From Myxococcales bacterium (GTDB lineage: Bacteria > Myxococcota_A > Polyangia > Fen-1088), in the NCBI GenBank assembly GCA_022184915.1, contig JAGTJU010000001.1:868057-932056 (forward strand): a stretch of DNA of 64,000 nt, in the 5' to 3' direction. Position numbers and translations under genes: made by a program. Each line of letters opens with the position of its first letter. Within the stretch, counting starts at the first letter, position 1. Shown here piece after piece: positions 21,801 to 41,385 of this stretch. The notes under the pieces are model-generated. The model worked only from the letters and a program-made list of their open reading frames with translations, had not been told where the DNA came from and made no database searches.

Positions 21801-22183
21801 TGATCCGGTCCGAGGTGAACCTGGGCGAAGCCATCGGCACGAACACGAGCCAAAATCGACCTTTGCAGGGCCAATCGCCGTGGGTCGTGAACGCCCAGCT
21901 CGAGTACGACGATGGCGAAGACTGGCTCTCGGCGGCGCTGTCGTTCAACGTCTTCGGCGCCCGGATCAGCGACGTGGGCAACAAAGGCCTGCCCGACATC
22001 TACGAAAAGCCCGCCCCGCTGCTCGACTTTACGAGTCGTCTCAACTTCGGAAGCCGTGGCGCCCTGAAGCTGTCGCTCCGGAACCTCATGAATCCGACGT
22101 TCCGCTTCGAGCAGGGAGAGGGCGTTCAGCGGGCCTACAAACTAGGCGTGTCCGGCTCGTTGACCTACGCACTTAGCTACTGA
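18896..22183 (+). CDS. TonB-dependent outer-membrane receptor with N-terminal carboxypeptidase-regulatory-like domains
   Basis: CarbopepD_reg-like segments (VRADQTGAFVQDAYIFVRG..., PQGQWFLSVVHPRYA). TonB-box-like DDFVVSTP. Plug domain (GLTVVGGKYVYVRGLGERYSSVLLDG). Long beta-barrel region ending in an aromatic residue. The start is uncertain; the ORF begins at 18806. Confidence 0.7.
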   Translation: MWVVCRLTGAHRSGAFSLIVTFPHLLHLLLTSLALSVAPDGGSGPPADGGADAGANTEPQPPRGGLAVLVFRQVTGERRVVMEDVQVDVLAQTGRTNMDGAVRLEVPAGAYPLRFSFGSDTFSPGNPDAPVRSLETLPVKVVDGETTEVIATFSSDGHLVNLLVEVPNADAMAAARPVSLEGPKGTIEGVVRADQTGAFVQDAYIFVRGAALEVKTDAQGRFRLSLPQGQWFLSVVHPRYATDAARPVSVEAEATTSLEVRLLSSEVELDDFVVSTPRLQGGVVAVTHERRETTEVADVLGAEAMKKAGDSDAAGALKRVAGLTVVGGKYVYVRGLGERYSSVLLDGSFLPSPDPSRRVIPLDLFPIDILESVVVQKTYSPDLPGDFSGGLVLLRTRGVPEAFFFNASLTLGGNSQSTFREGLGYQGGSLDRLGIDDGTRAWPRLVQEATNGGQDDIGRVSPDELRDAVWRSFPNVWDARPFTMGPDYGVDVSVGSRLAARGSTVIGYRLYAGYDTNTRFRNELRKTFSLQPGGLQVLDTTDLSWTAKNVSLTSMGALSAEFGRNHKIGAFAMITRRTQDSVLFREVDNVGEQRIERWTMLEWLEREMASAQLRGEHKVGGEKGLGVDWAVAYSRAAQALPDRRETKYARLERAQNDPFALSFGTATGGRPAVRSYEEFTEDAFSYGLNLVAPLRLGSQVEGRAKLGASRSEAKREVRINRYNYVITNFFGLSPDILERTSNPSVEANLVPGALGRGRWEIVDGGLNVDNYDGFYDVTGLYLAGELDLGKRVKAQGGVRYEDASIETQTFGLRATDQRAVSRLSDTPILPALTLTWLTSDKTQVRAAYSQTVNRPQLKELSENIFVNPETRFEERGNPNLEVARIRNVDARFEYYPSVTETASVAVFYKDFDNPIEQVILGGGADSGGVRTFANVPAASNFGLELEGRHDLERWADWMEGLTAVANVSVIRSEVNLGEAIGTNTSQNRPLQGQSPWVVNAQLEYDDGEDWLSAALSFNVFGARISDVGNKGLPDIYEKPAPLLDFTSRLNFGSRGALKLSLRNLMNPTFRFEQGEGVQRAYKLGVSGSLTYALSY

Positions 22184-22245: not shown

Positions 22246-23979
22246 TCACTCGAGGACGAAGGGCATCTGGCAGTCGAAGACCGAGTTCCGAATCAGCAGA
22301 TCATTGCTGGGCATCGTGGGGCTTGGCACGTGGGCGAACGTACCCAGGTCGTCAACGTCGATGCAGCCCGTCTTTGCGCGCGAAAAGACAGAGTTCCAGA
22401 TCTGCACCTTCGTTCCGCGTCGGAGAAGCACGGTGCCACCGGCGAACACACCGGGCCCGGGATTGGCCGGCCCCAGGATGGTGAGGTTCGCGAGCAGAGG
22501 GAACGAGACAGGGGCACGTGCGCTGTTCGTTTCGTCGTTGTCCGCTTCGATCCCGAAGTCTCCGAAGACATCGGATTGCAGGACCACCACGTGTTGGGCA
22601 CCACCGCGCCAGCCTTGTCCCCAGTCGAGGCTGTCGTCCCCGTTCGAGGTCAGAACCACGTGCCCAATGAAGTCTGCCGAGCCAAAGTGCTCGACGCCGT
22701 CGTCGAAGTTTCGATGGACTTGCACGTAGTCGGTGAGCGTGCCTGAGCCCGTGCCGAAGTAGGAGATCCCGTTGAGCTCATTGCCGTTTCCATCGACGTC
22801 GAAGCCCGCGTGACGGACGATCACGTACTTGAGAGAGCCGCTCGCATCGCTGTCGTCGTTGCCACCGTAGCTGCCCACCTGGCCCTCCGCCTCGACGTCG
22901 CAGTTCGCGTCGTTTTCAGTGACGCACTCGTTGCTCTTGGCGCGCCCCATCAGAACGAGTCCGCCCCATTCGGCGGCGTTGGTGTCGATGGGTGTGGAGG
23001 GACTGCCGTCGAAGCGGCCTTTGAGTTGATCCTCGGAGGTCATGACGATGGGGTTTTCCTTCGTGCCGTTGGCCATGATCTTCGAGCCTCGGGTGATGGC
23101 CAGAGCTTGCCCCCGAAACCCAAAGATCAAGGTGCCCGCCTCGATCTCGAGGACGGCCGTTACACGGCTGGCCGGTGGGACGACGGTTGTACGTTGGTAG
23201 CCGTTGCCGATGCGCACGGGCATGGCCGCCAAGCGGTAAACGTTGTCGTTCGTGAGCTTGATCGTCCCAGCTTGCTCGAAGGAAGTCAGCTCACAGATGT
23301 CGTAGTCGCCGGCGGCCACGAACAGCTTGGCCTCGTCGTTCGTGAGAGGGCCGAAGGTTTGTGCGAACGACTGCGCAGCCAGCGTGGTGCCCGCGGGACA
23401 GGATTTGTTGGCCACGGGGGCGGTTGCCGTTGCGAGTGCGGTGTTGGGCTCCCCCTTCGCGAAGTCCCAAACCGCGCTGTTGCCGTTGATGCCGATGGTC
23501 CAGCCGTCTGTCCACGCGGGCTTTCCTGGCTCGAAGGCACCTACGTACGCCGTGTTGGTGAAGTACGCAGGAACGGGAAAGCCATTCCACATGGCCGGTT
23601 TGGTGAAGGCAGCGCCGGTAAGGGTGCTTCCCGCGCCAGGCTGTCCCTTGTTGTCGATCCCGGACGGGCCCACCCGGTTGGCCAACGTGGGGAGCTCCAA
23701 ATAGCTCTTCAATGACCAAGGATCTGCCATGGTTCCCGGGGCGCCGCCGGTTCCGCCCGAAGTGCCCCCCATGGGCGTTGGTGCAGGCCCTGTGCCTCCC
23801 ACCGGGACCATCCCCATGCCTCCCGTACCGGCAGGGACGCCCCCGGTGCCTGCAGGCAGGTTGCCCGTGTTGCCGGTGCCGCCCCCGTTCGAGTCACCAC
23901 CGCAGGCGACGGCCAGGACGGCGGCCGTGCCGACCCCCCCCGCCAAGACCATGAGTGTTCCAAGTTGTTTACGAATCAT
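22246..23979 (-). CDS. Secreted lipoprotein, hypothetical (Gly-rich linker then beta-rich domain)
   Basis: Lipobox LAVACGG. A 70-aa G/T/P-rich linker. No recognisable catalytic motifs. Convergent with the TBDR gene. Confidence 0.45.
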   Translation of the reverse strand: MIRKQLGTLMVLAGGVGTAAVLAVACGGDSNGGGTGNTGNLPAGTGGVPAGTGGMGMVPVGGTGPAPTPMGGTSGGTGGAPGTMADPWSLKSYLELPTLANRVGPSGIDNKGQPGAGSTLTGAAFTKPAMWNGFPVPAYFTNTAYVGAFEPGKPAWTDGWTIGINGNSAVWDFAKGEPNTALATATAPVANKSCPAGTTLAAQSFAQTFGPLTNDEAKLFVAAGDYDICELTSFEQAGTIKLTNDNVYRLAAMPVRIGNGYQRTTVVPPASRVTAVLEIEAGTLIFGFRGQALAITRGSKIMANGTKENPIVMTSEDQLKGRFDGSPSTPIDTNAAEWGGLVLMGRAKSNECVTENDANCDVEAEGQVGSYGGNDDSDASGSLKYVIVRHAGFDVDGNGNELNGISYFGTGSGTLTDYVQVHRNFDDGVEHFGSADFIGHVVLTSNGDDSLDWGQGWRGGAQHVVVLQSDVFGDFGIEADNDETNSARAPVSFPLLANLTILGPANPGPGVFAGGTVLLRRGTKVQIWNSVFSRAKTGCIDVDDLGTFAHVPSPTMPSNDLLIRNSVFDCQMPFVLE

Positions 23980-24001: not shown

Positions 24002-24030
24002 GAAAAAAGGCCGCCCAAAAAGCGGGCGGC
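24002..24030 (-). terminator. Rho-independent terminator ending the long minus-strand operon (37.7 to 24.0 kb)
   Basis: On the minus strand, GGCCGCCC-GCTTTTT-GGGCGGCC followed by TTTTTT. Confidence 0.75.
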
Positions 24031-24057
24031 CCTGGTTGCTGGTCGTGAAGGGGAAGC

Positions 24058-25170
24058 TCAAACGGCGGGTGCCGGCCGAGCCCCTCTGCGCCGGGCCCAC
24101 AGATAAATCGTCAACGCCGCCACGGCACCGAGCAATGCCGCAAGCGCCACGAACACCTTCGGCGCCTGAAAGCGGGGAAACGCCCTCTCGAGCTCGGCGC
24201 GCATCGAAGCTTTCATTTGTGCAGACAAACCAAGCGCCTCCATGCGTCCGATGATCGCCTCGGCGCCGGCTTGATTTTTTTCGGCGAGTGCCAACGCCCA
24301 GTCGAAAGGCAAGAGGTTGGGGTCTGGAACGCCCTGGCTCCGCAGCTGCGCCACGCACCGGCCGAGCCGGGCCGCATCGTTGAGGCGTACGGCGAACCGG
24401 CACTCCAAAAATCCCACCTCGGTGGGCAAGTGCATCACGGGGGCGGGTTCGCTCGCGGCGCCTTCGAGCTTCTCGCGCACCTTCTTGAGTTGAAGAGCCT
24501 TGACCGCCTCGATGATCTCTTCGCGGCTGCGTTTTCTGGGGGGCTCGGCTTGCGCAAGGGCTTGCGCCGCCGGCGGGGCGGGCGAAGGGGCGGGCTCAGT
24601 CTTGCCGCTCAGTTTCGCTTTGAACGCCTCGAGGGAAGGCTGGGGGTTCGCCTTGAGATGCTCCTGCAGATGCGCGAGGCTGGCTTCGATGTTGTTGATG
24701 TCGCGGGGTCCGAAGCGCTTCGCCTTGAGCGTGTATTCCACGAAGCGCAGGTGATCCATGACCTTGGCGCCGGTCAGCGATACGGCCTTGCCGCAGTTTC
24801 CTGCCGCGATGTCGAAGTTTCCTAGCTTTGCGTACGCCAGACAAAGGCGGCTGAACGAGACCCAAGCCTCGGGCACGGCTGTTGCGAGCGCTTCGTAATA
24901 TTTGACGGCGCCGGACCAATCCGAGGCCTTGAAGGCTCCTTCCGCGCGCGCAGCCATGTCCTGAAGGAAGTACGCGAACTCGAGGGGATCGGCGTTTCGC
25001 TCTGCCACGGACGGAATGTTCGCCTTGGGATTGTCGTCGTTCACCTTCCACTTCGAGGCGAGATCGCCAGACGCAAGTGCCGGCTGTTCCGAGGCATGCG
25101 TTGCCGGGCCGAAGCCGGCGGCAAGCGCGCCGACGAGAAAAAAGAGAGAGAGCCTAAAGGGTCTTTGCAT
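24058..25170 (-). CDS. Secreted helical-repeat (TPR-like) protein with C-terminal TM anchor, hypothetical
   Basis: Signal peptide, helical repeat composition, C-terminal hydrophobic helix plus RRRGARP tail. Followed by a canonical terminator. Confidence 0.45.
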   Translation of the reverse strand: MQRPFRLSLFFLVGALAAGFGPATHASEQPALASGDLASKWKVNDDNPKANIPSVAERNADPLEFAYFLQDMAARAEGAFKASDWSGAVKYYEALATAVPEAWVSFSRLCLAYAKLGNFDIAAGNCGKAVSLTGAKVMDHLRFVEYTLKAKRFGPRDINNIEASLAHLQEHLKANPQPSLEAFKAKLSGKTEPAPSPAPPAAQALAQAEPPRKRSREEIIEAVKALQLKKVREKLEGAASEPAPVMHLPTEVGFLECRFAVRLNDAARLGRCVAQLRSQGVPDPNLLPFDWALALAEKNQAGAEAIIGRMEALGLSAQMKASMRAELERAFPRFQAPKVFVALAALLGAVAALTIYLWARRRGARPAPAV

Positions 25171-25194: not shown

Positions 25195-28068
25195 CTACCG
25201 AGAGCCGCAGGCCGCCACGCAGCGTGCGATGGTCTCCTCGCTCTGTCCTGACATCCTGAGCTCAGTCGCGTGACCATTGCTTACATAAAGGTGGCAGTCG
25301 GCAAGGATGTTGGCCATGTACCAGGACGCCGGACGTCCCGGGGCGGGCTCGACCCTGAAGTAGTCGTCAAAGATCGCAGCGTTTGTCGGTGTCATCGCAA
25401 ACTGCGATTCGTAGGCCTTTCGAGACTGTTCCGCGCATACGCCTTTGGGCACGAAGTTGGGGTCTTCGCACATCTCGTTGTCTTCCGGGGTAGGTCCGCA
25501 GTAGCAGGCTTGCGGTGAGAATCCGAGGCCGCAGCGCGAGTCCAGGAGGCAATTGAGAAGTGCGAGGCAAGGGGCATCGTTGAGACACCCAATGTCTCGC
25601 CCCAGGTCCTTCTCCAGAGGAACCCCGTTGAGCAGAGGCTTGCCGCACTCGCCTTCAACGAGACCGATGCACTCGACGCACGCGCTCACACCGATGCGTT
25701 GGCACTTATCGTCGCAAACGGTGCCGTCGGGTGGGTCGCACACCTCGCCCTCTTGAACGATGCCGTTTCCGCAGACCTTGAGCTGGCAGTCCTTGGCGCA
25801 CCCGCAGGCCATGGGGTTGGCCTGCGCCTCCGCCACACTGCACACGGGGCCTGTGGAAGGCGGGTCGCACGCCTCGAAGTCGGCCGTGACCACACCGTCC
25901 CCGCACACGAACTCGCTCTTGCAGGCCGCATCGCATCCGTCGCCGGGAGTGGTGTTGCCATCGTCGCACGCTTCTCCCCTTTGGCGGATGCCGTTTCCGC
26001 AGGCCAGAAGGAGACATTGGTCGTCGCAATCGGGAGTGCTGTCGCATTCCTCGAAGGTGCAACCGAGTCCCGTGGGCGTGATGCCGTCGCTGCAGGTATT
26101 GGGAGTCCTGCCCACCATGAGTGTGGTGTTGACATCGAACGCAAGCGGCCTCTCCTGCTTGATGCCGTTGCCGCAGGCGAGGGGGGATACGCAGTCGGCA
26201 GCGCACGCCTGGCCTTGGCACGAGAGGAGCTGACCAACCGCGGCCACGACGGGAAAGCGCGTGTCAGAGCCGCCGAACCGCTGCATGATCGTGAGAGGGT
26301 CCACCGTTTCGAGGGCTTGCTCAATCTGCGCACGGCAGCTTCCGTTGGCACGTCCGGGTTCGAGGCAACCGGGGCCCGCGCTGCCGCAGTAGCAGTTCTC
26401 GAGCCGGCTTTCGCCTGCGGGTATGGATATGCTCGACGTCAAGCTCGGCCGGGTCGAGATGACCGTCTTACCGTCGCACCCGGTGCGCATGATGCACTCT
26501 CTTAGCCCCTCACACAGTGAGGCTTTCGCGCGGCCTTTGGCGGGGCCCGCGGCGGCTACGCCTTCGAGGCCCAGGCAGGCGTCCATGCGCGGGCGGCACT
26601 CGGCGATGGCGCAGTTGTCGCACGCAGTCTTGTTGCGGCAGGTTGGGGTGCACGAACCCGCAGCGGTGAAGGAGGTCGCGGCCTCGTCACAGGCCTCGCC
26701 CAACTCCCGCTTGCCGTTGCCGCAATCGAACTCTTTGCCACACACGGGACTGCAGCCGTCGCCCGAGAGCAGATTCCCATCGTCGCAGGTTTCCCCGTCG
26801 TTCAGCTGGCAGTTTCCACAGTTGGGGAAGAGCTCGGTGATGTTGGCGCCGCGCAGAGTGACATCATCCCAAGAGGCGGACGCCGATGCCCCCGCGGGAG
26901 CCACCACGCCCAATTTGATGAGCAGCGACGCTGCGGGGGACGAGGCCGCGAGGCTGGTCGTATCGATGAGGCGGCTATAGGTGAGCCATGTGTCCGGCTG
27001 AGCGCTTGGCGAGCTGGCGGCTCCTGTACTGACCGGCCTGCCCGTGCAGGTTCCGTTCGAGAAGGCCTGAAGTACGGCGAAGGCTTTGGCGCCTGCGGGC
27101 TGCCCTGCGGCGTTGCGGTAGGCGGCGCGGAACTCCAGGAAGGCTCCGGGGGAAAAAGCCACACAGCGGGCGACGCCGTCCACGCTGAACGGGGGCAAAG
27201 TGCCTGCTGTAAAGGTCACCTTGACGCTGCCGGGGCTCTTGGCTCCTGCGCTCGGGTCATGTTGCGCCTGCACCGCGGGCCCTACGCTCCAGCCCGCCAG
27301 GTTCGTGTCGAAAGTGCTGTTGGGCACGATATTCTCATCGGGCGCACCTGCGTCCGCCGCCCCCGCATCGGGCGTGACCACGCAACCCGGCAGACCGGCA
27401 TCAGGCATAGTCGCGCCTGCGCGCTTGCAGGCCCCCACGCATGAGATGCCGTTGACCGGTTCGCATTCCTCTCCCAGCTCGGCGTTGAGCCTGCCGTCGC
27501 CGCAGAAGGGCTTGAGCTTGCAGGCCGCCGTGCATGTGGTGCTGGAACCGTCGGCGGCGCGGGGCCCCAGTCCAGGCTCGCATTCTTCTCCTGCGGTCGC
27601 GTCCAGGAGCCCATCGCCGCATTCCTTGCGGCAGGCGCGACAGCCGTCACCTGATGCGGTGTTGGCGTCGTCGCACTCTTCGCCCGGATCCAGCGTGCCG
27701 TTGCCGCAGGTCACGTTCAAAAGGCCGCAGGTCGCGCTGCAGACGCCGGCGGCCGGGGGATCGCACGACTCCGAGGGATCGACGATGCCGTTGCCGCAGG
27801 TCTCCACCTGGCACAGCGAGCTACATCCGTCGCCCGCCACGAGGTTGCCGTCGTCACAGGTCTCGGGAAGAGCCACGAGTCCGTCGCCGCAAATGGGCGC
27901 GGTGGGGTCGGGACAACCCGCGTCGCTACACCCGCCGTCTGGGATCTCCACTGAGACATCAACCGGGCTTTGTGCGGGGACGTTGTCGCCACAGGCGGCC
28001 AGTGCCCCCAAGGCGGCAAGCCACAAAACGTGACGCGTGCAGAAAAAGGTGTGAAGAGGGCGCTTCAT
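25195..28068 (-). CDS. Myxococcus-type cysteine-rich repeat protein (secreted, 957 aa)
   Basis: More than 15 copies of CGNG(x)D(x)GE(E/A)CD(D)GN..GDGC repeats (TIGR02232-like). Lipobox LGALAAC. Start trimmed to MKRPLHTFF. Confidence 0.75.
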
Positions 28069-28096: not shown

Positions 28097-31000
28097 TCAA
28101 CGTTTGCATTCATCGAACCCGATCTTCGGCTGCAGCTTCTTCTTCGTCATGCCATCGAGGAAGTAGTACGCCGCGACGCCTGCGTTCATGGCACCCCGTC
28201 GCGTCCAATCGTCGAGCAAGCGGGGAACCAGCGCACTCGACCTCGGCCAAAGTTGATGAACCCCCTTGTTGCCAAAGGCGCGTGCCAGCACCGGTGAAGG
28301 ACAAAACGGCATGTCCTTTTCGTCGTCGACGCCTGCAAGGCGAAAGTGCGAAACCGCACGTTGACGGTCTTCTTCGCTCTTCGGTGCCACGCACCAGGCG
28401 AAAAGGTTGTTGGCGTTGATGCCTTTCTCCACACGCCCGTCCAGGGTGCCTACGGGGTGGTTTTGCGGGTAGAGCCACTCTCCCTCTGGACTTTTCGCCA
28501 GATAGACACTTCCGGTCGGTTCCCTGAACAGGTCGGCTGCATTTTCGGTGGCTGCCGGAGACGGGAACGCCTCGGTGAACACCCGGACCGTGGGTGTATT
28601 TCTGAACCCGCAAAGGGAGGCCCAAAGTTCCAAGTGGCCTGAGTTTTCCACGAAGGGAACGATCGATCGGGCGTCCAGGTACATGCCGGTCGCTGCCGTG
28701 GCCGGATTGCGGAAGAACTTCACCTCCCACGGCAGATCCAGCACGCTTCGACAGAGTGCGCGTGCAGACTCGAGCATGTTGGCGTCCTTGACGTTGTCGC
28801 CCGCTTTGGGTGCAGAACCGTAAAAGGGGCTGGTCGATACGAGCCGCACGGCGATGGGAGGAATGGCACTCAGTGTTCCGCCCATGCCCATGAACACCAT
28901 GTAGCGCGCCAACCAATCGGCGGGCGTGCCGCCCCCCTTCGCCCCTTGGAACTCTGTGTGGGCGAACTGGCCCGGAGCGGCCACCGGGCCCAGCATGCCA
29001 TCGAGGAAGTTCGCCACCCTGACCCCACCGCCGGTGAGCTCGAGGATGGTGGCCGCCAAGGGACTGCGTGAATCGATGTCTCGTCCGTGGCAATTCTGGC
29101 ATGTGGCACGGAAGACAGCCTCACCGCGGCTTTGTTGATGAACCCTTCGGGCCCCGTCGCGCAGCGCGAACCGTGGGCCCTCCTTCGCGACCAGCCACTG
29201 GTAGCCGGGGGAAGGGGAACTCGACGCAAGCTCCGCCTGCCACGCGGACAGACGCTTGGAGGACGTAGACGCCTCCTGGCTCTCGCTGCATTCGGGCGCC
29301 CAGAAGCCCATGGGCAAAGACTCGGTTGCGAACCGTTCCTGTTCGCTGTCGAGGAAGAGCCCCTGGAGCATGTCGACCACCGTCGACACCTCAGGGGACA
29401 CGGGTACCGAGGGGCTGCGATCAACCAAGATATCTTTCCACTGAGAGCGGCGCGGCTTCCACACGTCTTTTCGATCCGTGGTGTCGACAACCACCCAGTG
29501 CGCGCGGTCGGGGACGGCATCGCGCAATGTGCCCTGCGCGGCGACGTTCACACGCGCACCGTTCAGCCGCCCCTCGTCGATGGGTGCTTTGCGCTCACCC
29601 TTGGCCACGCCGGGATCGACCGTGTCGTCGTCGTCAGGGCAGTGGCTGCCGGTCAAGCTGTTGCGGAAGCGCTGGAGGCGCAGCTCGGCCTCAGTCACTG
29701 CGTTTTGGTACCCATACGCCCGTCCATCCCTGTCAGGCAGCTTGTTGCCATCGCCCGCAACCACGTTCTCGTAGGGGAACTCGCCCTCCTTGACCTCCTG
29801 ATAGGGCTGCTCAAAGCCCGTGGCACCCTTTTTGTACTGCTCGTGTCCAGGCACGAGGATCGTATTTGTGACGGGATCGTTGACCGCCAACTTCTTGAGC
29901 TTCGGAATGCTGGGGATGCTCAGCATCCACTCGGCCATGATCGTCTGCGCCCGGCAGTCGTAGCCCGGTACGTTGCGGGGCATGTGAATGAAGAGCGTAT
30001 TGTCCTCCTCGTAGGTGAAGGGCGTATACACGTTCCTCCAAATGAGGCTTCGCCAGGGGCCATAGAACTTGAAAATGCCCTCGACCGGGTCGAGTTCATC
30101 CAGGTTCTGGCCGGGATTGTTGGAGCGGGGCCCCACGGGTGGAAGATAGTCGAGCGTGGGAAAGAGCTCGCGGGAGGTCAGCTCTCGAAGCGTCTTCGTG
30201 TTTGGCTTTTCCGTTTCGGAGCCGGTGAACCCGTCCGTCAGTTCGAAGTCGCCGATCGCAGGCGTAATGTAGGGGTGCCGAAGCGTTTGCAGGGGACCCA
30301 CCTTCGCCCGTGGCGAGTACTTTTCCAAAGGAAACTGGAACACTCCCCCCGTGGCGCTCGGGAAAAGATCGAAGTCCTTCAGCACGGGATTTTGCACGGT
30401 GGGAAACCCGGTTGGGTTGTGGCAAAACGCGCAGTTGCCCATCATGTAGCCTTGCGCCACCGCTTCGTATTTGTTGCGAGGCTTGCGTGTACCTTGCGAC
30501 TCCTCGAGTTTCGCCTCACCCGGAGCAATGCCCTCAATCACACCCCACTCGATGAGGCGCTGGAGCTGTTCGAGCTCGTCCGCAAAGGGAGGCTCGAAGA
30601 CCCCGCTCATCTCGTCGTCAGCCGATCGTCGATCGACATGCCAGGGGGTGAACCCGAGGATGAAGGAGTGATTCTGAGAGCCCATGTGGCATTCCACGCA
30701 GCGTTCGCGGCTGGGCAAGGGATAGTGTCGAATCTTCCCGGAGGCGGCGTTCGCCAGCTCATCGGACGTCATGTACGTGCACGTATCGCGGTTGGATTCG
30801 GGACTGACGGGGTTCTTGTCGGGATCGCGCGGGGCGCGTTCGTCCGTCACGTAGGGGCAGAGGCGATCGGCCCAGGGGTCTCCGCTCTCGAGCGGATCGA
30901 TGATTTTCCTCGCCATCTGCTCGTCTTTGTCCCACGCATAGATGACCATCAACGATCGCACCGCGTAGCGTCCGTCCGGGAGGAGCTCGTCGGGGCGGGA

Positions 31001-32050
31001 CACGATGAGCCGCGTCTCCATTTTCCGGTAGCCCACCTCACCGTTCTTGTCGATCACCTTGCGCAAGAACGTCTTGTAGAACCGCGTGTTGGGCGGGATG
31101 AAGAAGTCCTTCGTCTCCGGGTTGTAGCGAATCTTTTGACCCACGGGCACGCGCACGTAGCGCATCTTCGAGGCGTTATCGGAAAACAGCGTGTACGTGG
31201 GGGCGTAGCTAAAGACTCCGCGGCGCGCGAGTTCCGCCGAGTCGAGCGTCGCGAGGTCGGTCTCCACGAGCGTGTCAGGCAGGTCCGCAAAAGACGTCAT
31301 GCTCGCGAAGCGCGCATCGAGCGCCTTCGCCTCGTCTTGCACGATCTCGAGCTTCTGGGTGGGCAGACAACTGCCGATGTTGGTCAAGCCCGCTGCCATG
31401 GTCGCTGGCAGCCGGTAAGGCGCGGATGAGGGCGCGGGACTGCCTCCGGCAAGAGGCTCGTTGGTCTGGACCTGGAACACGTCGGGGAACTGCTGCTCTT
31501 CCCAGGCGAGCATTCTTTCGGCCAAGAGACGAAGAGGCTCGTTGGCCGCACGGCGGCTTCCGTCTCCCGAGCCGGGGGGCATGACCTTGTCGCGGTCAGC
31601 GGACAGAATGCGGGCGTGCGAAAGGCTGCCCAGGTCCGCACGCTGGGTGAAGGTTTCCAGGTTGATGGTGAACGTGCCCGTCACCCCCGACTTCAGGTCG
31701 GGCCGCGGCGCCGCGCCGACCGCCACCCCGTGGCAGCCGGCCTGCCCACAGCTCTTCTCGAAGTCCGTCCAGAGTTCTTGCTTCGTAATGCTGCGCGTGT
31801 TGTTTCCACCGCCGCTCCCCGGAGCGCCAGCCGCCGTGACCTCGCGGCGCGCCGCCAGGAGCTCGGCCTTGACCTCGCGGCAGGAGCCCGGTTGGGAGGG
31901 TGTCCCCGGCGTGCTCGGCGACGTGGGAACGAACGTCGATCCTGGGTCGTACCCATCAAAGGGCGCCTTGTCCGTCTTCTCGCTACAGCTCGGAAAGACG
32001 AACGAGGCACACAGGACAACTCCGAAGACACCGGCGTGGGCGAGGCGCAT
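28097..32050 (-). CDS. Large lipoprotein (1317 aa) with N-terminal PSCyt1-like (planctomycete cytochrome c-like) domain and three CxxCH motifs
   Basis: Lipobox FVFPSC. PSCyt1-like signature (CGQAGCHG ... GS...MPPG...LLAERMLAW). Additional CVECH, CAFCH and CQNCH motifs. Confidence 0.6.
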
Positions 32051-32082: not shown

Positions 32083-33615
32083 TCAGAAACACTCAGCGTT
32101 GCATTTGAGAAAGGCCTCGTCGACGATCACGGTGGCGTTCCCCATGGGGTAGTTGAAGTCGAAGTAGCGCGCCAGCACATCGGTATTCACAGGGTTGTTT
32201 CCCGCGCCGGCCTTCATCTCCGCCGCGCAGTCACCCTCGGGCACGAACGAGGGATTCTCGCACTCGTCGATCTTGGCCTGTGAGTTGCCGCAATAGCACG
32301 CTGCTGGCGCGATGGCCGTCCAGCAGGTGGGGCTGGCGAGAATGCAGGAGAGCACCGAAGCGCAGAGTGCGTCAGGCTGACAAACCGTTGCGTTGAACTC
32401 GCCGACTTCGGTCCGGGTGGCGATGCACTCCAGACACAGGTTGTTCTCCTGCACCTCGAGCTTACACTCGACACAGGCGGGGTTCATGCTGTCGTCGCAT
32501 TCCTCGGCACCCTCGACCACCCCGTTACCACAGATGGGCACGATGGTGCACGTGTCGCTGCAAAGCTGGTTGGCCTCGAGCCCTGCGTCTCCATCGCATT
32601 GTTCGGACGCCTGGTTGACCGCACCGTCGCCACAGGTCGCGGCCGAGGAGATCTGACACTCTGGTGTGCAGCCCTGGCCCTCGCTGAGACCAGCCGTGCC
32701 GTCGCAGGCTTCGCCGGTTTGCACGATGCCGTCGCCGCAGCGTTCGATGGCGCAGGTGGACGAGCAGCCGTCGTTGTTCGTGGTGTTGCCGTCATCACAG
32801 GCCTCCGTGCCCTCTTGCTGACCGTCTCCGCATACGTTGGCCTGAAGACAGGACAGCCACACCTCTTCGGTGTCGAGGCAATCGTCGTCCTCGTACGTCA
32901 CGGAGACAAAGACCCCCGCGGCGGGCAGACCCGTGAACGGATCCGCTGCGGAGGCTGTGCCCAGACCACTGCAGGTGAAGGCTTTGCATGCGAACGCGCC
33001 CTCGTGGCAGGTGCCGTCACCGAGCGTGCCCTGCGCAGTCTGGGCCGCGTCGTTGCGGAGCGACCAGGTCAACGAGGGCGTACCCACGACGGCAGCGTCG
33101 TGAAGAAGCACGTTCACCGCGGTGGAACTGCCCAGGAGCACGTCCGCAGGGGCCGCGTAGATCGTCTTGATCCGATCGGCGGAGCAGTCTTTGTACGCGA
33201 CGGTGGCGCGCACCCGTGCCCCGCCGCCGCCATTGGAGATGCCGCTGCAGAGCAGGGTGACCTGCACGTCTACCGTGGATGCGGGCACCACCGAGAAGGT
33301 CTTGCTGCCCTGACACTCGAAACCCTCGCCGGTCTTGGTGCCCAGGGTCACCACGCACTCTCCGGCCGCAAGGCCGCCGAAAACGGCCAGGATGCGTCCG
33401 TCTTGCACCTGCAACGTCCTGGTGATGTCCACGCCACTGCCGGCGCAGACGAGCTTCAGATCGACAGACTGCACGGTTTGGCCTTCCGGCACGTCCAGCT
33501 CGAAGCGAACGCTCCCCGTGGGGCGTCCCGATGTGTCCCCGTCGCCGCAAGCGACGAGGGACGTAACGAGGGCAAGGGCAAAAGCGGCGCGAAGACGCGT
33601 GAGGGTCTGGATCAT
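32083..33615 (-). CDS. Cys-rich-repeat lipoprotein, paralog A
   Basis: Lipobox LVTSLVAC. N-terminal Ig-like region, then CGDG/CDDGN repeats. The C-terminal 110 aa are highly similar to the paralog at 36150..37682. Start trimmed to MIQTLTRL (510 aa). Confidence 0.7.
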   Translation of the reverse strand: MIQTLTRLRAAFALALVTSLVACGDGDTSGRPTGSVRFELDVPEGQTVQSVDLKLVCAGSGVDITRTLQVQDGRILAVFGGLAAGECVVTLGTKTGEGFECQGSKTFSVVPASTVDVQVTLLCSGISNGGGGARVRATVAYKDCSADRIKTIYAAPADVLLGSSTAVNVLLHDAAVVGTPSLTWSLRNDAAQTAQGTLGDGTCHEGAFACKAFTCSGLGTASAADPFTGLPAAGVFVSVTYEDDDCLDTEEVWLSCLQANVCGDGQQEGTEACDDGNTTNNDGCSSTCAIERCGDGIVQTGEACDGTAGLSEGQGCTPECQISSAATCGDGAVNQASEQCDGDAGLEANQLCSDTCTIVPICGNGVVEGAEECDDSMNPACVECKLEVQENNLCLECIATRTEVGEFNATVCQPDALCASVLSCILASPTCWTAIAPAACYCGNSQAKIDECENPSFVPEGDCAAEMKAGAGNNPVNTDVLARYFDFNYPMGNATVIVDEAFLKCNAECF

Positions 33616-33770: not shown

Positions 33771-34691
33771 TCACCTCGCGCTCGGGCGCCTTCGCCACGG
33801 TCTTGCGGCAAGGCCAAGCGCAAGCACGAGCCACGCCCAATGTTCAGGGGTGGCCCTGTGTCGACTGGCAAACGTGCACCCGCCGGCTGCCTCCGGCGGG
33901 ACTGCGGCGCAGGCTGTCGGATTCAAGGCGGCAGGCGTTGATGGGGTGGGCGTACAGGCGAGCGCTGGGGCTACGGGCGGGAAGAGGGCGCAGATGCCGG
34001 CCACGTCGTCGGCGGTGAGCCCCCGATAAGCCTCGACCGCATACGAGCGAAACATCAGAGCCTGCGGGTCCTGCGAGTGGGCCAGCCCCAGCGCGTGACC
34101 GGCTTCGTGGAGCGCCACGGTGGCAAGGTGGCCGCGTACCGATGCTGCATCGTCGCGGCGCAACTGTAGCCACAATTCGTTCAGTTCCACGTCGGCGTCG
34201 AAGACGCGTCCGTCGGGGAGTGTGAAAACGGGCGTGGTTCTTCCGGCCACGACCCCCGTGGCGAGTGTGATGACCGGCGGGTTCGGAAACTGGGGGCTGA
34301 TGCCCCAAACGTCGATGTTGTCTTCAGGAAGCGCTGTGCACGCAAACGGCAAGGCCGCATCAACCGGCGCCGCCACACTCACGGCGAAACGCGGTGGCGC
34401 TCCCGCACAGTCGACGGAAGCCCACGTCTCGAAGGCCTGTCGCACGAGCGCGGTCAGCTCGTCGTCGCTCACGCCCACCCGCACGCCGCTGCTTCGTTGA
34501 ACCGCCAGAGTCAGGCACGGGCTGCTGCGCCTGAGCGGTGCGCCTTGTATCGAGCACCCAGCCGCGTCGCGCTGGCAGGCCGCCCCGTCCGTTGCATCGG
34601 GATCGCATTGCCTCGCCAGGCAAAATGCCATCGCACGACTCTGTCCGAACCCGAACGCCACAAGGACCAAAAGCAACCTTGCAGCGCGCAT
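33771..34691 (-). CDS. Secreted M10-family (matrixin-like) zinc metalloprotease with MYXO-CTERM-like sorting tail
   Basis: HEAGHALGLAHS (HExxHxxGxxH) plus Met-turn ALMF. C-terminal GGC...hydrophobic helix...RRRPSAR tail. Confidence 0.75.
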   Translation of the reverse strand: MRAARLLLVLVAFGFGQSRAMAFCLARQCDPDATDGAACQRDAAGCSIQGAPLRRSSPCLTLAVQRSSGVRVGVSDDELTALVRQAFETWASVDCAGAPPRFAVSVAAPVDAALPFACTALPEDNIDVWGISPQFPNPPVITLATGVVAGRTTPVFTLPDGRVFDADVELNELWLQLRRDDAASVRGHLATVALHEAGHALGLAHSQDPQALMFRSYAVEAYRGLTADDVAGICALFPPVAPALACTPTPSTPAALNPTACAAVPPEAAGGCTFASRHRATPEHWAWLVLALGLAARPWRRRPSAR

Positions 34692-38097: not shown

Positions 38098-40074
38098 ATG
38101 AATCGCACCATGAGACTCGTAGCGGGTTCCGTGTTCGTGCTGGGCATGACGAGCCCGGCATTCGCACAGAATCCCAACTTCATCGACACCACCCGCGCCA
38201 CGCCCAACGCCATCTCGGGCTCCGACACGCTCAACAAGGTGATGGACGACCTGCTCCTTCAGCTTCCGCTTTCGGGCGGCATCAACACCTACTTCGGCTG
38301 CGGTTCGTCCTGCGGCGAGCGTCAACTTGCCGGCTCGCCCAGCTCCGGCGATGGTGCCAACAATGGTTGTACACCCTCTGACGGCAACGGTGCTCCCGAA
38401 GCCAACCCTGGCTGCCAGGAGATCTCGGGCATGTCCCGCCCGCTTCAAAGCGGCATCTGCGATGACGACCCCAACTTCCCCGGCAGCACGAACGATCAGG
38501 CCGAGGGCCTTGCGTTCTGCGCCGACGGCCTCGTGATCCTCGGCAACAACGATTCCATCGGCGCCTACGGCACCGACGCAGCATCGTGCGCCGCCTACTT
38601 CGCGTCGTCCACCACGCCGAACACGGGTAACCAGTTCCCGGATCGTGGAGTGGGCGCTCTCCGCAACAGCGGTACCCTGGCCAGCGGGTATCAGATCGCG
38701 GACTGGAAAGACGTGATTCGGCTCGTATACACGGGCTGTACCAACGCCGACGGCACCTGCGCGAACACCACCAACCGCGTGACCCGCTGTGGGAGCGCCG
38801 TGCGCCGCGAAGTCGTCGAGAACTGGGGAAATCTTTTCCAGGGCGTGGCTTGCTCGCAGAGCGGCGGCTGCCCTTCGGGCCTCGTGCGCGCGTTCCGTCG
38901 CGACGATGCCTCTGGTACGACCGGCGTGTTCCTCGAGCTCATCGGCGTGGCGTTCAACGTGTCCACCAACATCACCTCACGCGCAGACGTGGTTTCGGGC
39001 ATTCCCCGCGCCATCACGCCCATGCCTGCGAACCTCTCGTTCTGCGACGGTGGCGACATCGAAGGTGTGATCCCAACGAACTTCGGCCCGAGTGGTGAAG
39101 CCGCCTTCGATCTGGGCGACCCGATCCGCACGGCGTGCCTTGCCGAGGACGACATCTGCGCCCGCGACGGCCGGCTCGGTCTCGTCCGCGCCATCCGCTC
39201 CACCGACACGGCCACCGTGGCCCAGGCCTATCCGGACTATCAATGCAAGCGCCTCTTCGCCTACCAGCAGTACATCAACGCGGCCTTGAACATTTGCCCC
39301 GACGGCACGAAGACCTCGGCGGGTCGCTGCCGCTTCCCCTACTACGAGGACGGCGCCTTCCGTACCTTCAACTGCATCGCGAACCAACGCTCTGCGTCTC
39401 CGGCCGCTCCGGCGGGCACCGACGGCCGTTCGTACAACTTCGTGGTCCACGCAGACGACGGCACCGTCTCCTTTGCCGACTTGAACCGCCGTCTGCCCGT
39501 CACCGCCTACTGGCGTCACAACATGGCCGTGCTGAACAACAGCGCGCTCGCCAACGGCAAGGTCCTCACGGCCGCCGACGTGGTCTGCCAGGAGAGCGAC
39601 GCCACGCGGAACATCGGTTGCCTCACGGCCAACTCGAAGTGCACCCTGGGCTACGCAGGCCGCGAAGCGGCGTTCAACAACTCGCAGCCCACGGTTCACC
39701 TGTCAAACGAGCCCGTCAAGCTGAATGGCTTTCCACCCTCGGGTGAGGCCGTTTCGGCCGGCAGCTACCCGTTCTCGCGCCTCCTCTTCATGAACGCCTC
39801 GCGCGGCTTCGAGAACATCATGGAGGATTGCAAGAACCGGGGCGGCACGAAGGCCTACTGCGAGGACCAGGTCCGCATCGCGCAGGAGTTCTTCACGGTG
39901 GGGCAGCCGGGCAACGTGCTCGGCGACATCTGCAGCAACGCGGGCTTCATTCCGCTGCCTGCCGCGCTGTGCGTGGGTGCTCAGGGCAGCGCTGGCTGTG
40001 GCGCTCCTTCGAGCCAGCCCCTCTCGGCATGCGCGATCGACGCCCGTTCGTATGACTCGCTCGTGAACAACTAA
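38098..40074 (+). CDS. PstS-like (PBP superfamily) secreted binding protein with large Cys-rich insertions
   Basis: AGGAGG RBS 8 nt upstream. Signal peptide ending AFAQ. GS.CG and SYPFSRLLFMN motifs resemble the PstS family's YP.SRPLY. At 659 aa it is about twice the usual length, with many paired Cys. Confidence 0.5.
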   Translation: MNRTMRLVAGSVFVLGMTSPAFAQNPNFIDTTRATPNAISGSDTLNKVMDDLLLQLPLSGGINTYFGCGSSCGERQLAGSPSSGDGANNGCTPSDGNGAPEANPGCQEISGMSRPLQSGICDDDPNFPGSTNDQAEGLAFCADGLVILGNNDSIGAYGTDAASCAAYFASSTTPNTGNQFPDRGVGALRNSGTLASGYQIADWKDVIRLVYTGCTNADGTCANTTNRVTRCGSAVRREVVENWGNLFQGVACSQSGGCPSGLVRAFRRDDASGTTGVFLELIGVAFNVSTNITSRADVVSGIPRAITPMPANLSFCDGGDIEGVIPTNFGPSGEAAFDLGDPIRTACLAEDDICARDGRLGLVRAIRSTDTATVAQAYPDYQCKRLFAYQQYINAALNICPDGTKTSAGRCRFPYYEDGAFRTFNCIANQRSASPAAPAGTDGRSYNFVVHADDGTVSFADLNRRLPVTAYWRHNMAVLNNSALANGKVLTAADVVCQESDATRNIGCLTANSKCTLGYAGREAAFNNSQPTVHLSNEPVKLNGFPPSGEAVSAGSYPFSRLLFMNASRGFENIMEDCKNRGGTKAYCEDQVRIAQEFFTVGQPGNVLGDICSNAGFIPLPAALCVGAQGSAGCGAPSSQPLSACAIDARSYDSLVNN

Positions 40075-40248: not shown

Positions 40249-41385
40249 ATGCGACTCCCTCGGCATCGTTCAGCACAGACCCGTGCGCGGGGCGTCCTGG
40301 TTGCCTTGATGACGGCCTGGTCCCTTGCGTCCTGCGGAGACGACGTGCTGGCCCCCGAAGGCCCGAGCAACCCGGACCTGGTGCGTGAGGCGCGTGCCCT
40401 GGTGAGGGTCCAAGAGGTTCCCGAGGGGGTGCGCTGCCTGCGCGTCACGGTGGCGGGGGTGTTTACGATGCAGTTTTCCTTGGACGTCGAGGCGGGCAAG
40501 GTCACGTCTCTCTCCGCGGGGGGCCTGCCCACCGGCATTGTTCATTTTCAGGCGGAAGCCTTCGAGTCGGCCTGCGCTTCGGTGACGACCTCGGACATCG
40601 CTGAGTGGCGCAGCGCCCCGCAGACACAGACTTTGGTTGCGGGCACCACGGCTGTTTTGACGCTCGTGCTCCGCCGAAACGGGGTGGCGGAGGTAGGATT
40701 TGGCTTCGAGTTCGCAAAGCCCTGTGCGCCAGGCGCAAACGCCTGCAGCAGCGACGAGCTTTGTTTCGTGCTGGCCTGCGGGGACGCCTCCGGCGGATGC
40801 CTGAAGAGGCCGCTCACCTGTTCGCAACAATACGACCCCGTCTGCGGCTGTGATGGCGTGACCTATGCCAACGCGTGCGAAGCCGCCGCGGCAGATCGTT
40901 CGGTGGCCCACGCAGGCGCCTGCAGCTGCGGAGGCCCAAATGCTGTCACCTGCGCGGCAGGTTATGCGTGTACGTATCCGGACGGCGTCTGCGCCAGTCC
41001 TGGCCAAACGGGTGTATGTACGGCGGCGCCGGTGGCGTGCCCCAGTGTGTCCGAGCCCGTGTGTGGCTGCGACGGAAGAACGTATGCGAACCGCTGTCTG
41101 GCGGCAGCGGCTGGGGCATCGGTTCTCGCGGAAGGCGCTTGCGCGCCGATCCCCTGCGGAGGTCCGGTGAACGCAGGCTGTCCGGCCTCCATGTTCTGCT
41201 CGTTTGCGGACGGAACGTGCGCGGACCCGGTGCGCGTCGGTGTTTGCGTGGAGCGCCCTCGTCTTTGCCCCACGATACAGTACGCCCCCGTGTGCGCATG
41301 CAACGGCAAACAGTACACGAACGTCTGCCTCGCCAATGCGGTGGGCGCCTCCGTGGCCAACCGCGGCCCCTGCGTGTCCCCGTAG
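40249..41385 (+). CDS. Lipoprotein with three Kazal-type serine-protease-inhibitor domains
   Basis: Lipobox SLASC. Three PVCGCDG.TYAN.C repeats (Kazal signature). Confidence 0.7.
   Translation: MRLPRHRSAQTRARGVLVALMTAWSLASCGDDVLAPEGPSNPDLVREARALVRVQEVPEGVRCLRVTVAGVFTMQFSLDVEAGKVTSLSAGGLPTGIVHFQAEAFESACASVTTSDIAEWRSAPQTQTLVAGTTAVLTLVLRRNGVAEVGFGFEFAKPCAPGANACSSDELCFVLACGDASGGCLKRPLTCSQQYDPVCGCDGVTYANACEAAAADRSVAHAGACSCGGPNAVTCAAGYACTYPDGVCASPGQTGVCTAAPVACPSVSEPVCGCDGRTYANRCLAAAAGASVLAEGACAPIPCGGPVNAGCPASMFCSFADGTCADPVRVGVCVERPRLCPTIQYAPVCACNGKQYTNVCLANAVGASVANRGPCVSP

Follow-up and report, generated by a model that had tools for sequence, protein, structure and literature searches.

The gene of interest lies within a 64,000-nucleotide stretch of DNA from a Myxococcales bacterium, referred to here as the window, and encodes a 1317-aa protein that is predicted to be a lipid-anchored c-type cytochrome. 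This protein is identical to the NCBI MAG protein KA712_03685, which carries the title "hypothetical protein, Myxococcales bacterium". The genes and features that surround it are as follows, by position in the window.

19139..22183, plus strand: TonB-dependent receptor (CarboxypepD_reg, Plug, and barrel, in that order; TonB-Xanth-Caul-like)
22246..23979, minus strand: 577-aa beta-helix protein in a separate transcription unit (precomputed Pfam match PF28492, Beta_helix_4)
24007..24033, minus strand: intrinsic terminator-like hairpin of 11 bp with 8 G-C pairs and a T tail, closing the putative operon
24058..25170, minus strand: 370-aa TPR-like protein that has a signal peptide and, at its C-terminal side, a hydrophobic stretch and then RRR; final gene in the putative operon
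25195..28068, minus strand: 957-aa DUF4215/myxo_disulf_rpt protein, downstream of and co-oriented with the cytochrome gene (TIGR02232, 146 bits)
28097..32050, minus strand: whole gene for the 1317-aa putative tetraheme c-type cytochrome lipoprotein (ORF and translation, ATG start)
32083..33615, minus strand: 510-aa DUF4215/myxo_disulf_rpt Cys-rich repeat protein, upstream of and co-oriented with the cytochrome gene
38098..40074, plus strand: 658-aa Cys-rich secreted protein, distantly related to PstS/PBP_like_2; the commonest neighbor among related loci

Co-transcription of the cytochrome gene with the two Cys-rich repeat genes and the TPR-like gene, which had been claimed in a first-pass annotation of this DNA, is supported by the short gaps that separate them and by the 11-bp terminator located straight after the TPR-like gene. 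The gap between the upstream DUF4215 gene and the cytochrome gene is 32 nt and contains a GGGAG ribosome-binding site, while the gaps on either side of the 957-aa DUF4215 gene are 28 nt (to the cytochrome gene) and 24 nt (to the TPR-like gene). The order of the cytochrome and 957-aa DUF4215 genes is kept in related loci L002, L004, L007-L009, and L011, indicating that this partner is conserved in the clade to which the window belongs. The 370-aa protein matches TPR_2 weakly (E = 0.002, below the Pfam cut-off), and a segment related to it is present in 51 of 86 loci. Rfam and tRNA scans revealed no RNA gene bearing on the locus.

The surroundings of the operon are also partly conserved. A tblastn search with the 658-aa protein gave matches in 62 of 86 loci, and in 52 of these the match spans 50% or more of the query; one homolog reaches PF12849 at 29.4 bits (cut-off 27), and the window's own protein has no Pfam match reaching threshold. 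Homologs of the beta-helix protein adjoin the cytochrome in about 10 independent loci of roughly 80, in arrangements that vary. When the window is counted with the approximately nine other independent loci that have a beta-helix gene beside the cytochrome, a TonB receptor is found in all but one; receptor and beta-helix gene occur together beside the cytochrome in nine independent loci. The 577-aa protein of the window has no NCBIfam match, no BLASTP similarity to a genuine TIGR03805 protein, and no PDB similarity. As a side observation, ars genes lie within 8 kb of the cytochrome gene in three independent loci of the family; there are none in the window.

The features predicted within the cytochrome gene are listed below in the direction of transcription.

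31985..32050, minus strand: signal peptide up to the lipobox residue Cys22 (residues 1-22), a Cys retained by 90% or more of the homologs
After Cys22 to about residue 85, minus strand: Pro/Ser/Thr/Gly-rich tether
31481..31795, minus strand: PSCyt1-like/class-I monoheme cytochrome c domain (residues ~86-190; PF07635 and PF13442 matches in the family)
31730..31750, minus strand: heme motif 1, C101-x4-C106-H107; C101, C106, and H107 invariant
31577..31582, minus strand: M157-P158 of an MPP motif, candidate distal Met ligand of heme 1; invariant, at a position matched by the PSCyt1 profile
30371..31303, minus strand: SO2930/HNE_0200-type diheme module (residues ~250-560), a beta-sandwich followed by a helical two-heme region (TIGR03806, hhalign, AF2)
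30686..30700, minus strand: heme motif 2, C451-V-E-C454-H455; invariant, in register with the first CxxCH of SO2930 proteins
30419..30433, minus strand: heme motif 3, C540-A-F-C543-H544; invariant, in register with the second CxxCH of SO2930 proteins
29903..30058, minus strand: conserved block PWRSLIWRN...H689-M690-P691-RN...DCRA...W708-M709 (residues 665-716; conservation, pLDDT 85-95)
28736..29158, minus strand: class-I (CcoP-like) monoheme cytochrome c domain (residues ~965-1105; PF13442, PDB CcoP matches)
29087..29101, minus strand: heme motif 4, C984-Q-N-C987-H988; invariant
28100..28729, minus strand: C-terminal beta-rich domain and long terminal helix (residues 1108-1317; AF2, pLDDT mostly 80-97)

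All of the motif strings quoted in the first-pass annotation are present in the translation, namely CGQAGCH (residues 101-107), VMPPGSG (156-162), LLAERMLAW (175-183), CVECH (451), CAFCH (540), and CQNCH (984). The three CxxCH motifs compare with a chance expectation from composition of 0.0056 per protein, and none of 20,000 shuffled 1317-aa sequences contained three or more. Alignments of 31, 60, and 117 homologs show that the C, C, and H are invariant in each of the four Cys/His motifs, and because of this invariance the protein is identified as a tetraheme c-type cytochrome, with heme attachment predicted from sequence. The annotation had counted three dispersed CxxCH motifs; these stand, and it is best to add the N-terminal C-x4-CH to them as the fourth heme site, since it aligns with the canonical CxxCH of the larger clade. 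Among 74 readable related loci the spacing between the two Cys at this site is 2 residues in 62, 4 in 10, 5 in one, and 7 in one, which identifies the C-x4-CH, as judged by alignment, as a variant of an ancestral CxxCH. The graded series of CxxCH, Cx4CH, Cx5CH, and Cx7CH at one homologous site offers a natural test set for the tolerance of the heme-attachment machinery.

The protein was initially regarded as an oddity; it is instead one member of a family of hundreds. Full-length homologs share 33-58% identity with it, and the family comprises at least 414 clusters at 50% identity from at least 192 species-level genomes, some with two copies, which makes the cytochrome a conserved component. 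The best 80 of 192 genome matches are nearly all titled Myxococcota or Polyangia, the rest being unspecific; all are MAGs, and none of these 80 bears a Planctomycetota title. The family is a big one, and its members in this analysis come from MAGs of myxobacterial (Polyangia-type) origin. Polyangia abound in soil as predators and have very large genomes; few of them have been cultured, and little has been described of the redox biology of their envelope.

The location of the protein was previously given as extracellular. The conserved Cys22 supports an extracytoplasmic, lipid-anchored protein, and the support reaches no further. The lipobox of the window protein (F-P-S-C22) is atypical, while most homologs have a clear lipobox-like context (e.g., LLAC, LIGC, VAAC, and FAGC). 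The protein contains 22 Cys, and ten non-heme Cys are conserved in the family (57, 228, 699, 804, 921, 1100, 1147, 1220, 1250, and 1315), which fits an oxidizing compartment. The earlier description of a large c-type cytochrome, probably of lipoprotein type, that has few hemes in relation to its length is upheld.

The N-terminal domain resembles PSCyt1 at the family level. Among 21 family members, 15 match PF13442 and 14 match PF07635 with E values of 1 or lower, the best being 3e-5, although the window protein itself scores 12.9 bits against PF07635 (E = 0.18), below the 22-bit gathering threshold; the PSCyt1-like N-terminus of the first-pass annotation is upheld at this level. Weak class-I cytochrome matches to residues ~86-190 were also obtained in the PDB profile search. 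Similar to PSCyt1, the domain has a heme motif, about 50 residues, an MPP, and a C-terminal helix ending in W, and M157 of this MPP may serve as the distal ligand of heme 1. In contrast to PSCyt1, its heme motif is C-x4-CH and not CxxCH. The companions of PSCyt1 in planctomycete proteins (PSCyt2/DUF1549, PSD1/DUF1553, and DUF1585-1595) have no Pfam match in the window protein at E up to 0.1.

The sequence beyond this domain had been called otherwise unassignable, which no longer applies, as CVECH and CAFCH belong to an SO2930/HNE_0200-type diheme module and CQNCH to a class-I cytochrome c domain. The window protein matches TIGR03806 at 77.7 bits (E = 8.7e-22), short of the 313.3-bit cut-off, with residues 258-354 aligned to profile positions 2-94 and residues 438-560 to positions 128-239. 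Its relatives score 94-118 bits; of the genuine members, one exceeds the cut-off at 351.5 bits and another falls short of it at 172.7 bits. Alignment of the family with genuine SO2930 proteins by hhalign gives probabilities of 99.2% and 99.6% (E = 1.2e-19 and 1.8e-23), both CxxCH motifs are in register, and the blocks PxYxL(F/W)(S/T)DxAxKxR, (N/G)T(R/V)..K(T/E)F, (M/V)ETR(L/Y), YxWxxDE, and NCxxCH are common to the two groups. The AF2 secondary structure agrees with the layout of a beta-sandwich followed by a helical two-heme region. Genuine SO2930 proteins also match PSCyt1, after their second heme. They stand alone at 350-400 aa, whereas the module of the window protein is embedded in 1317 aa that add two monoheme domains, ~500 aa of unmatched sequence, and an insertion of about 70 aa after heme 3. 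The protein is best read as a new architecture of an already known but uncharacterized kind of cytochrome.

Within the block that follows the module, M690, P691, W708, and M709 are invariant and H689 is conserved at 95%. It was considered whether residues 662-718 (HMPRN...W) correspond to the MPP...W end of SO2930 proteins; this gained no support, as the block HMM scored no better than shuffled sequences, and M690 consequently stays a conjectural distal ligand of heme 3. A spliced construct lacking the post-heme-3 insertion matched no Pfam family. In the heme-4 region, residues 973-991 match PF13442 at 31.2 bits (cut-off 27) over positions 3-21 of a 68-position profile, and thus in part, and the family profile matches CcoP chains in the PDB (E = 9e-6). 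As in CcoP (cbb3 oxidase subunit III), an invariant Met occurs 66 residues after the His, making M1054 the candidate distal ligand of heme 4; M1092 is also invariant. The alignment with CcoP is limited to the first ~20-45 residues around the heme motif, and the single domain of the window protein sits inside a far larger protein with no oxidase context.

The AF2 model (pLDDT 84.3, pTM 0.87) is compact, with residues 196-1317 predicted to form one body. A single-sequence search of the PDB with the protein returned nothing relevant, the family-profile search returned class-I cytochrome matches only (at hemes 1, 3, and 4), and Foldseek searches of the PDB with two models gave no match with E below 0.18. 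The Pfam models for P460, CCP_MauG, MtrC, and c7/c3 gave no significant matches, and the window protein has no match to PF03150 (di-heme cytochrome c peroxidase/MauG). No characterized homolog accounts for the entire length of the protein, in agreement with the earlier annotation. Literature searches for SO2930, SO_2931, TIGR03805/TIGR03806, HNE_0200, and myxobacterial multiheme cytochromes returned listings and no functional study.

The gene context of the SO2930 proteins provides a further comparison. On a Novosphingobium plasmid, a TIGR03805 beta-helix gene and a TonB receptor immediately precede a genuine TIGR03806 gene; ars genes occur 5.6 kb from this TIGR03806 gene. A beta-helix protein and a TonB-dependent receptor nearby are thus common to this locus and the window. 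The beta-helix neighbor in the window, in contrast to the partner in the SO2930 gene pair, has no TIGR03805 similarity, so the context is analogous to that of the SO2930 pair and not the same. Sandaracinus has an SO2930-like gene and, next after it, a gene of its own for a diheme class-I cytochrome, an arrangement consistent with the fused class-I domain of the window protein acting as a redox partner of the core.

Based on these comparisons, it is proposed, with slightly better than even confidence, that the protein is a lipid-anchored extracytoplasmic tetraheme redox protein built from an SO2930-type core and two monoheme relay domains and working with partners encoded by neighboring genes. 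Four covalent hemes would be distributed over five parts anchored outside the cytoplasm: the PSCyt1-like domain, the SO2930-type module, a ~270-aa helical region, the class-I (CcoP-like) domain, and the C-terminal beta-rich domain. The SO2930-type module would be the functional core, and the residues that it shares with canonical SO2930 proteins (K295, R297, E345-T346-R347, W373, and E377) would make up a site next to heme 2 for a substrate or a partner. The His/Met-type monoheme domains (M157 and M1054) would carry electrons between this core and soluble or membrane redox partners, along a path that is assumed. The cytochrome may act with the co-transcribed Cys-rich DUF4215 and TPR-like partners. 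Together with the neighboring beta-helix protein and the TonB-dependent receptor, it may also handle something at the outer membrane, as in the canonical SO2930 pair examined; against a role for these neighbors, the beta-helix gene of the window sits beyond the terminator, its product shows no relation to TIGR03805, and only about 10 of roughly 80 independent loci have the beta-helix/TonB pair.

Other functions can be envisioned for the same set of domains. The beta-sandwich and heme 2 could form a catalytic center with a five-coordinate, open heme similar to P460 or cytochrome c'-beta, in which case the other three hemes would only feed or drain electrons and heme 2 would bind or convert a small compound, for example, NO, hydroxylamine, peroxide, or some sulfur species. 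A beta-sheet domain precedes the CxxCH in P460 and c'-beta as it does in the window module, a likeness that is a lead only, and these proteins recur among the top Foldseek matches (2je2 and 7ead; with the second model 7ead, 2je2, 7zqz, 9hqt, and 7zs4), although the matches are insignificant (E ≥ 0.19, probability ≤ 0.2, TM ~0.3, rmsd ~8 Å). One sister protein matches PF16694 at heme 2 very weakly (E = 0.55), but neither the window protein nor its close relatives have a Pfam P460 match. H689 and H851 are the only His residues, other than the proximal ones of the four hemes, with conservation above 90%, so the protein may provide no distal ligand for one heme or more; against this, the invariant M690 and M709 and the near-invariant H851 could supply ligands. 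Such an enzyme is considered unlikely, and the same holds for its extension to a hitherto unrecognized, Polyangia-specific class of lipid-anchored tetraheme oxidoreductases with an open P460-like catalytic heme in the SO2930-type core, in which the TonB receptor, beta-helix, and PstS-like proteins would help to oxidize or reduce a substrate captured at the envelope. If this were true, the widespread SO2930/TIGR03805 gene pair would for the first time have a function assigned to it. We find it no less doubtful that the protein is an outer-surface conduit for extracellular electron transfer, like the outer-membrane lipoprotein cytochromes of Shewanella and Geobacter. The lipoprotein anchor would suit this role, and SO_2931, which adjoins SO_2930 by locus number, has been handled in Shewanella work as an outer-membrane multiheme cytochrome homolog (PMC10986466; PMC5829830; PMC4837345). 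However, with four hemes in 1317 aa the protein comes nowhere near MtrC/OmcA-type wires in heme density, matches to the MtrC/MtrF and c7/c3 Pfam models are insignificant (PF22113, E = 0.07-0.27, below the cut-off), and the gene neighborhoods read contain no MtrAB-like porin-cytochrome partner.

It appears distinctly unlikely that the cytochrome helps in redox handling of an oxyanion of a metal or metalloid (Cu, Fe, As, or P species) that would enter through the TonB-dependent receptor or be bound by the PstS-like protein. This reading draws on the NosD-like beta-helix partner of canonical SO2930 proteins adjoining TonB receptors, on the PstS/PBP_like_2-like protein near the cytochrome in 62 of 86 loci, and on the ars genes near three family loci and the Novosphingobium gene. 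Only about 3 of 80 loci show the ars linkage, however, and the window is not among them; an arsenic link was rejected as an explanation on these grounds. In addition, the window's PstS-like protein falls below every Pfam threshold, no metal-binding motif was identified, and TonB-Xanth-Caul-type receptors are more often linked to carbohydrate uptake. It is hardly credible that the CxxCH motifs are chance or non-heme (disulfide or metal) features of a non-redox surface protein: the 22 Cys and the Cys-rich DUF4215 proteins around it would fit, but three CxxCH plus the C-x4-CH far exceed the 0.0056 motifs expected, none of the four sites varies in its C, C, or H, and every site is homologous to bona fide cytochrome c families.

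Whichever function applies, the family newly connects the SO2930 diheme module, PSCyt1-type cytochrome domains, and the myxobacterial Cys-rich DUF4215 proteins. Residues 1108-1317, which have no match in Pfam, NCBIfam, or the PDB, contain the conserved Cys 1147, 1220, 1250, and 1315, and a sister architecture of ~900 aa mostly lacks this domain. Overall, ~500 residues outside the assigned domains are confidently folded in the model with no PDB counterpart, making them a reasonable structural target.

The open reading frame at 28097..32050 (-) opens with an ATG, lies behind a GGGAG ribosome-binding site, starts 32 nt past the stop of the upstream gene and encodes 1317 amino acids. The product is a probably lipid-anchored, extracytoplasmic cytochrome whose four conserved heme-attachment sites belong to three recognisable kinds of cytochrome domain within what is predicted to be one folded body. 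The reading frame and every motif reported in the first-pass annotation were confirmed, with CGQAGCH at residues 101-107, VMPPGSG at 156-162, LLAERMLAW at 175-183, CVECH at 451, CAFCH at 540 and CQNCH at 984. Composition (22 Cys, 20 His) predicts 0.0056 CxxCH motifs per protein, and 0 of 20,000 shuffles of the sequence contained at least three. An identical protein from an NCBI metagenome-assembled genome is entered as 'hypothetical protein KA712_03685 [Myxococcales bacterium]'.

Alignments of 31, 60 and 117 sequences show no variation in the Cys, Cys and His residues at any of the four motifs. The larger clade of relatives carries CxxCH at the heme-1 site, and the clade of the window has Cx4CH, Cx5CH, Cx6CH or Cx7CH there; across related loci the two Cys residues are separated by 2 residues in 62 cases, 4 in 10, 5 in 1 and 7 in 1. 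Because CxxCH occupies the same site in the larger clade, the C-x4-CH of the window (C101, C106, H107) represents an expanded canonical heme-attachment site. Judged from these alignments, the N-terminal motif counts as a fourth heme site beside the other three. The spacings form a graded series at one homologous heme site, which can be followed from window residues 101-107 (31730..31750) through the related loci L007-L012, L047 and L066.

The N-terminal domain (residues ~86-190) scores only 12.9 bits against PSCyt1 in the window copy. Of 21 family members, 14 match PSCyt1 (best E = 3e-5) and 15 match Cytochrome_CBB3. The earlier description of this end as PSCyt1-like is borne out at the family level; the interpretation as a whole is supported in part, its count of three CxxCH motifs giving way to four heme sites. 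The central module (~250-560) matches TIGR03806, the model of the SO2930 family of diheme c-type cytochromes, in two stretches, residues 258-354 (profile positions 2-94) and residues 438-560 (profile positions 128-239), with a score (77.7 bits, E = 8.7e-22) far under the 313-bit membership cut-off. For a direct test of homology, two SO2930-type proteins were obtained by tblastn against plasmids, one from Novosphingobium sp. EMRT-2 (351.5 bits on TIGR03806, over the cut-off) and one from Sandaracinus amylolyticus pSa001 (172.7 bits, under it). Alignment of the family profile with these proteins using hhalign gave probabilities of 99.2 % and 99.6 % (E = 1.2e-19 and 1.8e-23). The alignments bring the two CxxCH motifs of each side into register and show shared conserved blocks at K295/R297, E345-T346-R347 and W373...E377. 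The heme-4 region reaches 31.2 bits on Cytochrome_CBB3 (Pfam threshold 27) and matches CcoP chains in the PDB (E = 9e-6).

Regions of the cytochrome with no match in Pfam, NCBIfam or the PDB
Residues 665-716: conserved block
Residues ~781-975: helical region
Residues 1108-1270: beta-rich C-terminal domain, then a long helix

The 1300-aa architecture is not covered by any curated model, and it is new among proteins of this known but still uncharacterised kind. The finding is one of a solid and conserved family of 'dark' proteins, not of a surprising mechanism.

Met residues are invariant in the family at positions 157 (in MPP), 690 (in HMP), 709, 1054 and 1092, and the only well-conserved His residues besides the proximal ones are H689 (95 %) and H851 (93 %). 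Candidate distal heme ligands are M157, M690 or M709, H851 and M1054. Ten non-heme Cys residues are also conserved, as would suit a protein with disulfides in an oxidising environment. At least 90 % of members keep Cys22, mostly in lipobox-like contexts followed by low-complexity tethers; the lipobox of the window copy, F-P-S-C, is atypical. An AlphaFold2 model of residues 196-1317, built from the 60-sequence alignment, is confident (mean pLDDT 84.3, pTM 0.87, with 574 residues reaching a pLDDT of 90 or more), which suggests that this part of the chain forms one compact multi-domain body. A second model, of residues 58-720, has a pLDDT of 78.6 and a pTM of 0.71.

On the minus strand, the cytochrome takes fifth place in a run of seven genes of the same orientation.

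Genes of the run containing the cytochrome
Gene 1, (-): DUF4215 protein
Gene 2, (-): 396-aa protein, no family match
Gene 3, 33771..34691 (-): M10 metalloprotease
Gene 4, (-): DUF4215 protein, 510 aa
Gene 5, 28097..32050 (-): the cytochrome
Gene 6, (-): DUF4215 protein, 957 aa
Gene 7, (-): TPR-like protein, 370 aa

Gaps of 32 and 28 nt flank the cytochrome and one of 24 nt precedes the TPR-like gene, and a strong terminator-like hairpin (24033..24007) follows this last gene. Past the terminator lie a 577-aa beta-helix protein (precomputed Pfam match PF28492) and a convergent TonB-dependent receptor. The M10 (matrixin) metalloprotease of the operon weakly resembles the 'myxosortase-dependent metalloprotease MXAN_2677/2678' family (49 bits; cut-off 250). 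A few kb from the operon, a 346-aa protein (~40345..41385 (+), 666-1706 in the extracted window locus L001) carries Kazal-type protease-inhibitor domains.

Neighbouring genes were compared by tblastn over 86 related loci. The order cytochrome, ~950-aa DUF4215 protein, TPR-like protein is kept in the clade of the window (L002, L004, L007-L009 and L011). In the larger CxxCH clade, a signal-peptidase-I (S26) gene lies directly downstream of the cytochrome on the same strand in 51 loci and is absent from the window; the copy in locus L005 (13645-14670) scores 105 bits on PF10502 and carries SMVPT and KRVIGLPGD motifs. A type I signal peptidase gene is tightly linked to a lipoprotein gene in that clade. 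Both clades also have a Cys-rich protein of ~650 aa, distantly PstS/PBP_like_2-like, within 8-10 kb of the cytochrome (62 of 86 loci).

Window copy of the Cys-rich neighbour
38098..40074 (+): Cys-rich secreted protein, 658 aa

The Pfam PBP_like_2 (PstS-type) threshold is passed by one relative of this protein and not by the window copy. A beta-helix gene stands beside the cytochrome in ~10 independent loci, in both clades and in several arrangements, and is accompanied by a TonB receptor in nine of them; locus L040 has the beta-helix gene only.

The Novosphingobium plasmid offers the same kind of trio: a TonB receptor and a TIGR03805 (NosD-like) parallel beta-helix gene lie immediately ahead of its genuine SO2930 gene. 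Unlike that partner, the beta-helix protein of the window has no sequence similarity to TIGR03805. On the Sandaracinus plasmid, a separate gene for a diheme class-I cytochrome comes after the SO2930-like gene; this arrangement is consistent with the fused class-I domain of the window cytochrome acting as redox partner of its SO2930-type module. The stand-alone Sandaracinus gene (L088 7917-9583; 'hypothetical protein', 173 bits on TIGR03806) comes from a cultured member of the Polyangia, overlaps the start of the diheme cytochrome c-553 gene and could be an experimentally tractable proxy.

The SO2930-type module would be the functional core of the cytochrome, and the residues common to it and the stand-alone SO2930 family probably line a site beside heme 2. 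The N- and C-terminal His/Met-type domains may provide the points of electron entry and exit. Its operon partners, and perhaps the adjoining beta-helix/TonB pair, would act together with the protein on something dealt with at the outer membrane.

Other roles are weakly supported. A P460-like catalytic heme is one of these: the sole recurring theme in Foldseek searches was a very weak likeness to cytochrome P460 and cytochrome c'-beta (7ead, 2je2, 7zqz, 9hqt and 7zs4; TM ~0.3, probability at most 0.2), and neither model had a match in the PDB with E < 0.18; this similarity is treated as a lead, not as evidence. A weak case can likewise be made for an extracellular electron conduit. A literature search found no functional work on the SO2930 family; the papers found list SO_2930 and SO_2931 among Shewanella cytochromes, or take SO_2931 as an outer-membrane cytochrome homologue. 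Participation in metal or metalloid handling is also weakly supported. Three independent loci have genes of the ars type (ArsR, Acr3, ArsC) no more than 8 kb from a family member (L005 16023-18715, L006 6300-8237 and L037), and such genes also occur on the Novosphingobium plasmid (at L087 14666-16558), 5.6 kb from its genuine SO2930 gene; there are none in the window, and the numbers elsewhere are small.

The cytochrome belongs to a large family. More than 348 relatives were returned by a word-indexed search. When 1.84 billion representatives were searched exhaustively with a profile, 414 clusters at 50 % identity reached E ≤ 1e-30, and the number rose to 789 at E ≤ 1e-10. Full-length relatives have 1150-1400 aa and 33-58 % identity to the cytochrome, and their JGI label is only 'mono/diheme cytochrome c family protein'. 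A shorter sister architecture (~880-990 aa) keeps all four heme motifs and is missing most of the C-terminal domain. Among GTDB species representatives, 192 genomes contain a relative, several of them with two copies. The best 80 of these 192 are all metagenome-assembled genomes, with no isolates and no planctomycetal genomes among them. Isolate names and sources of the metagenome-assembled genomes point to soil, peat and freshwater as their origin. Most of the 80 have Myxococcota/Polyangia-type titles (Polyangiaceae, Polyangiales, Sandaracinaceae, Haliangiales or 'Myxococcales'), and the remaining titles are broad (for example 'Deltaproteobacteria', 'Proteobacteria' or 'uncultured bacterium') apart from one Luteimonas sp.

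A search of the whole window against Rfam at the gathering threshold gave no match. ARAGORN called a tRNA-Arg(tcg) at 54137..54226 (+), which at 90 nt is long for this tRNA.
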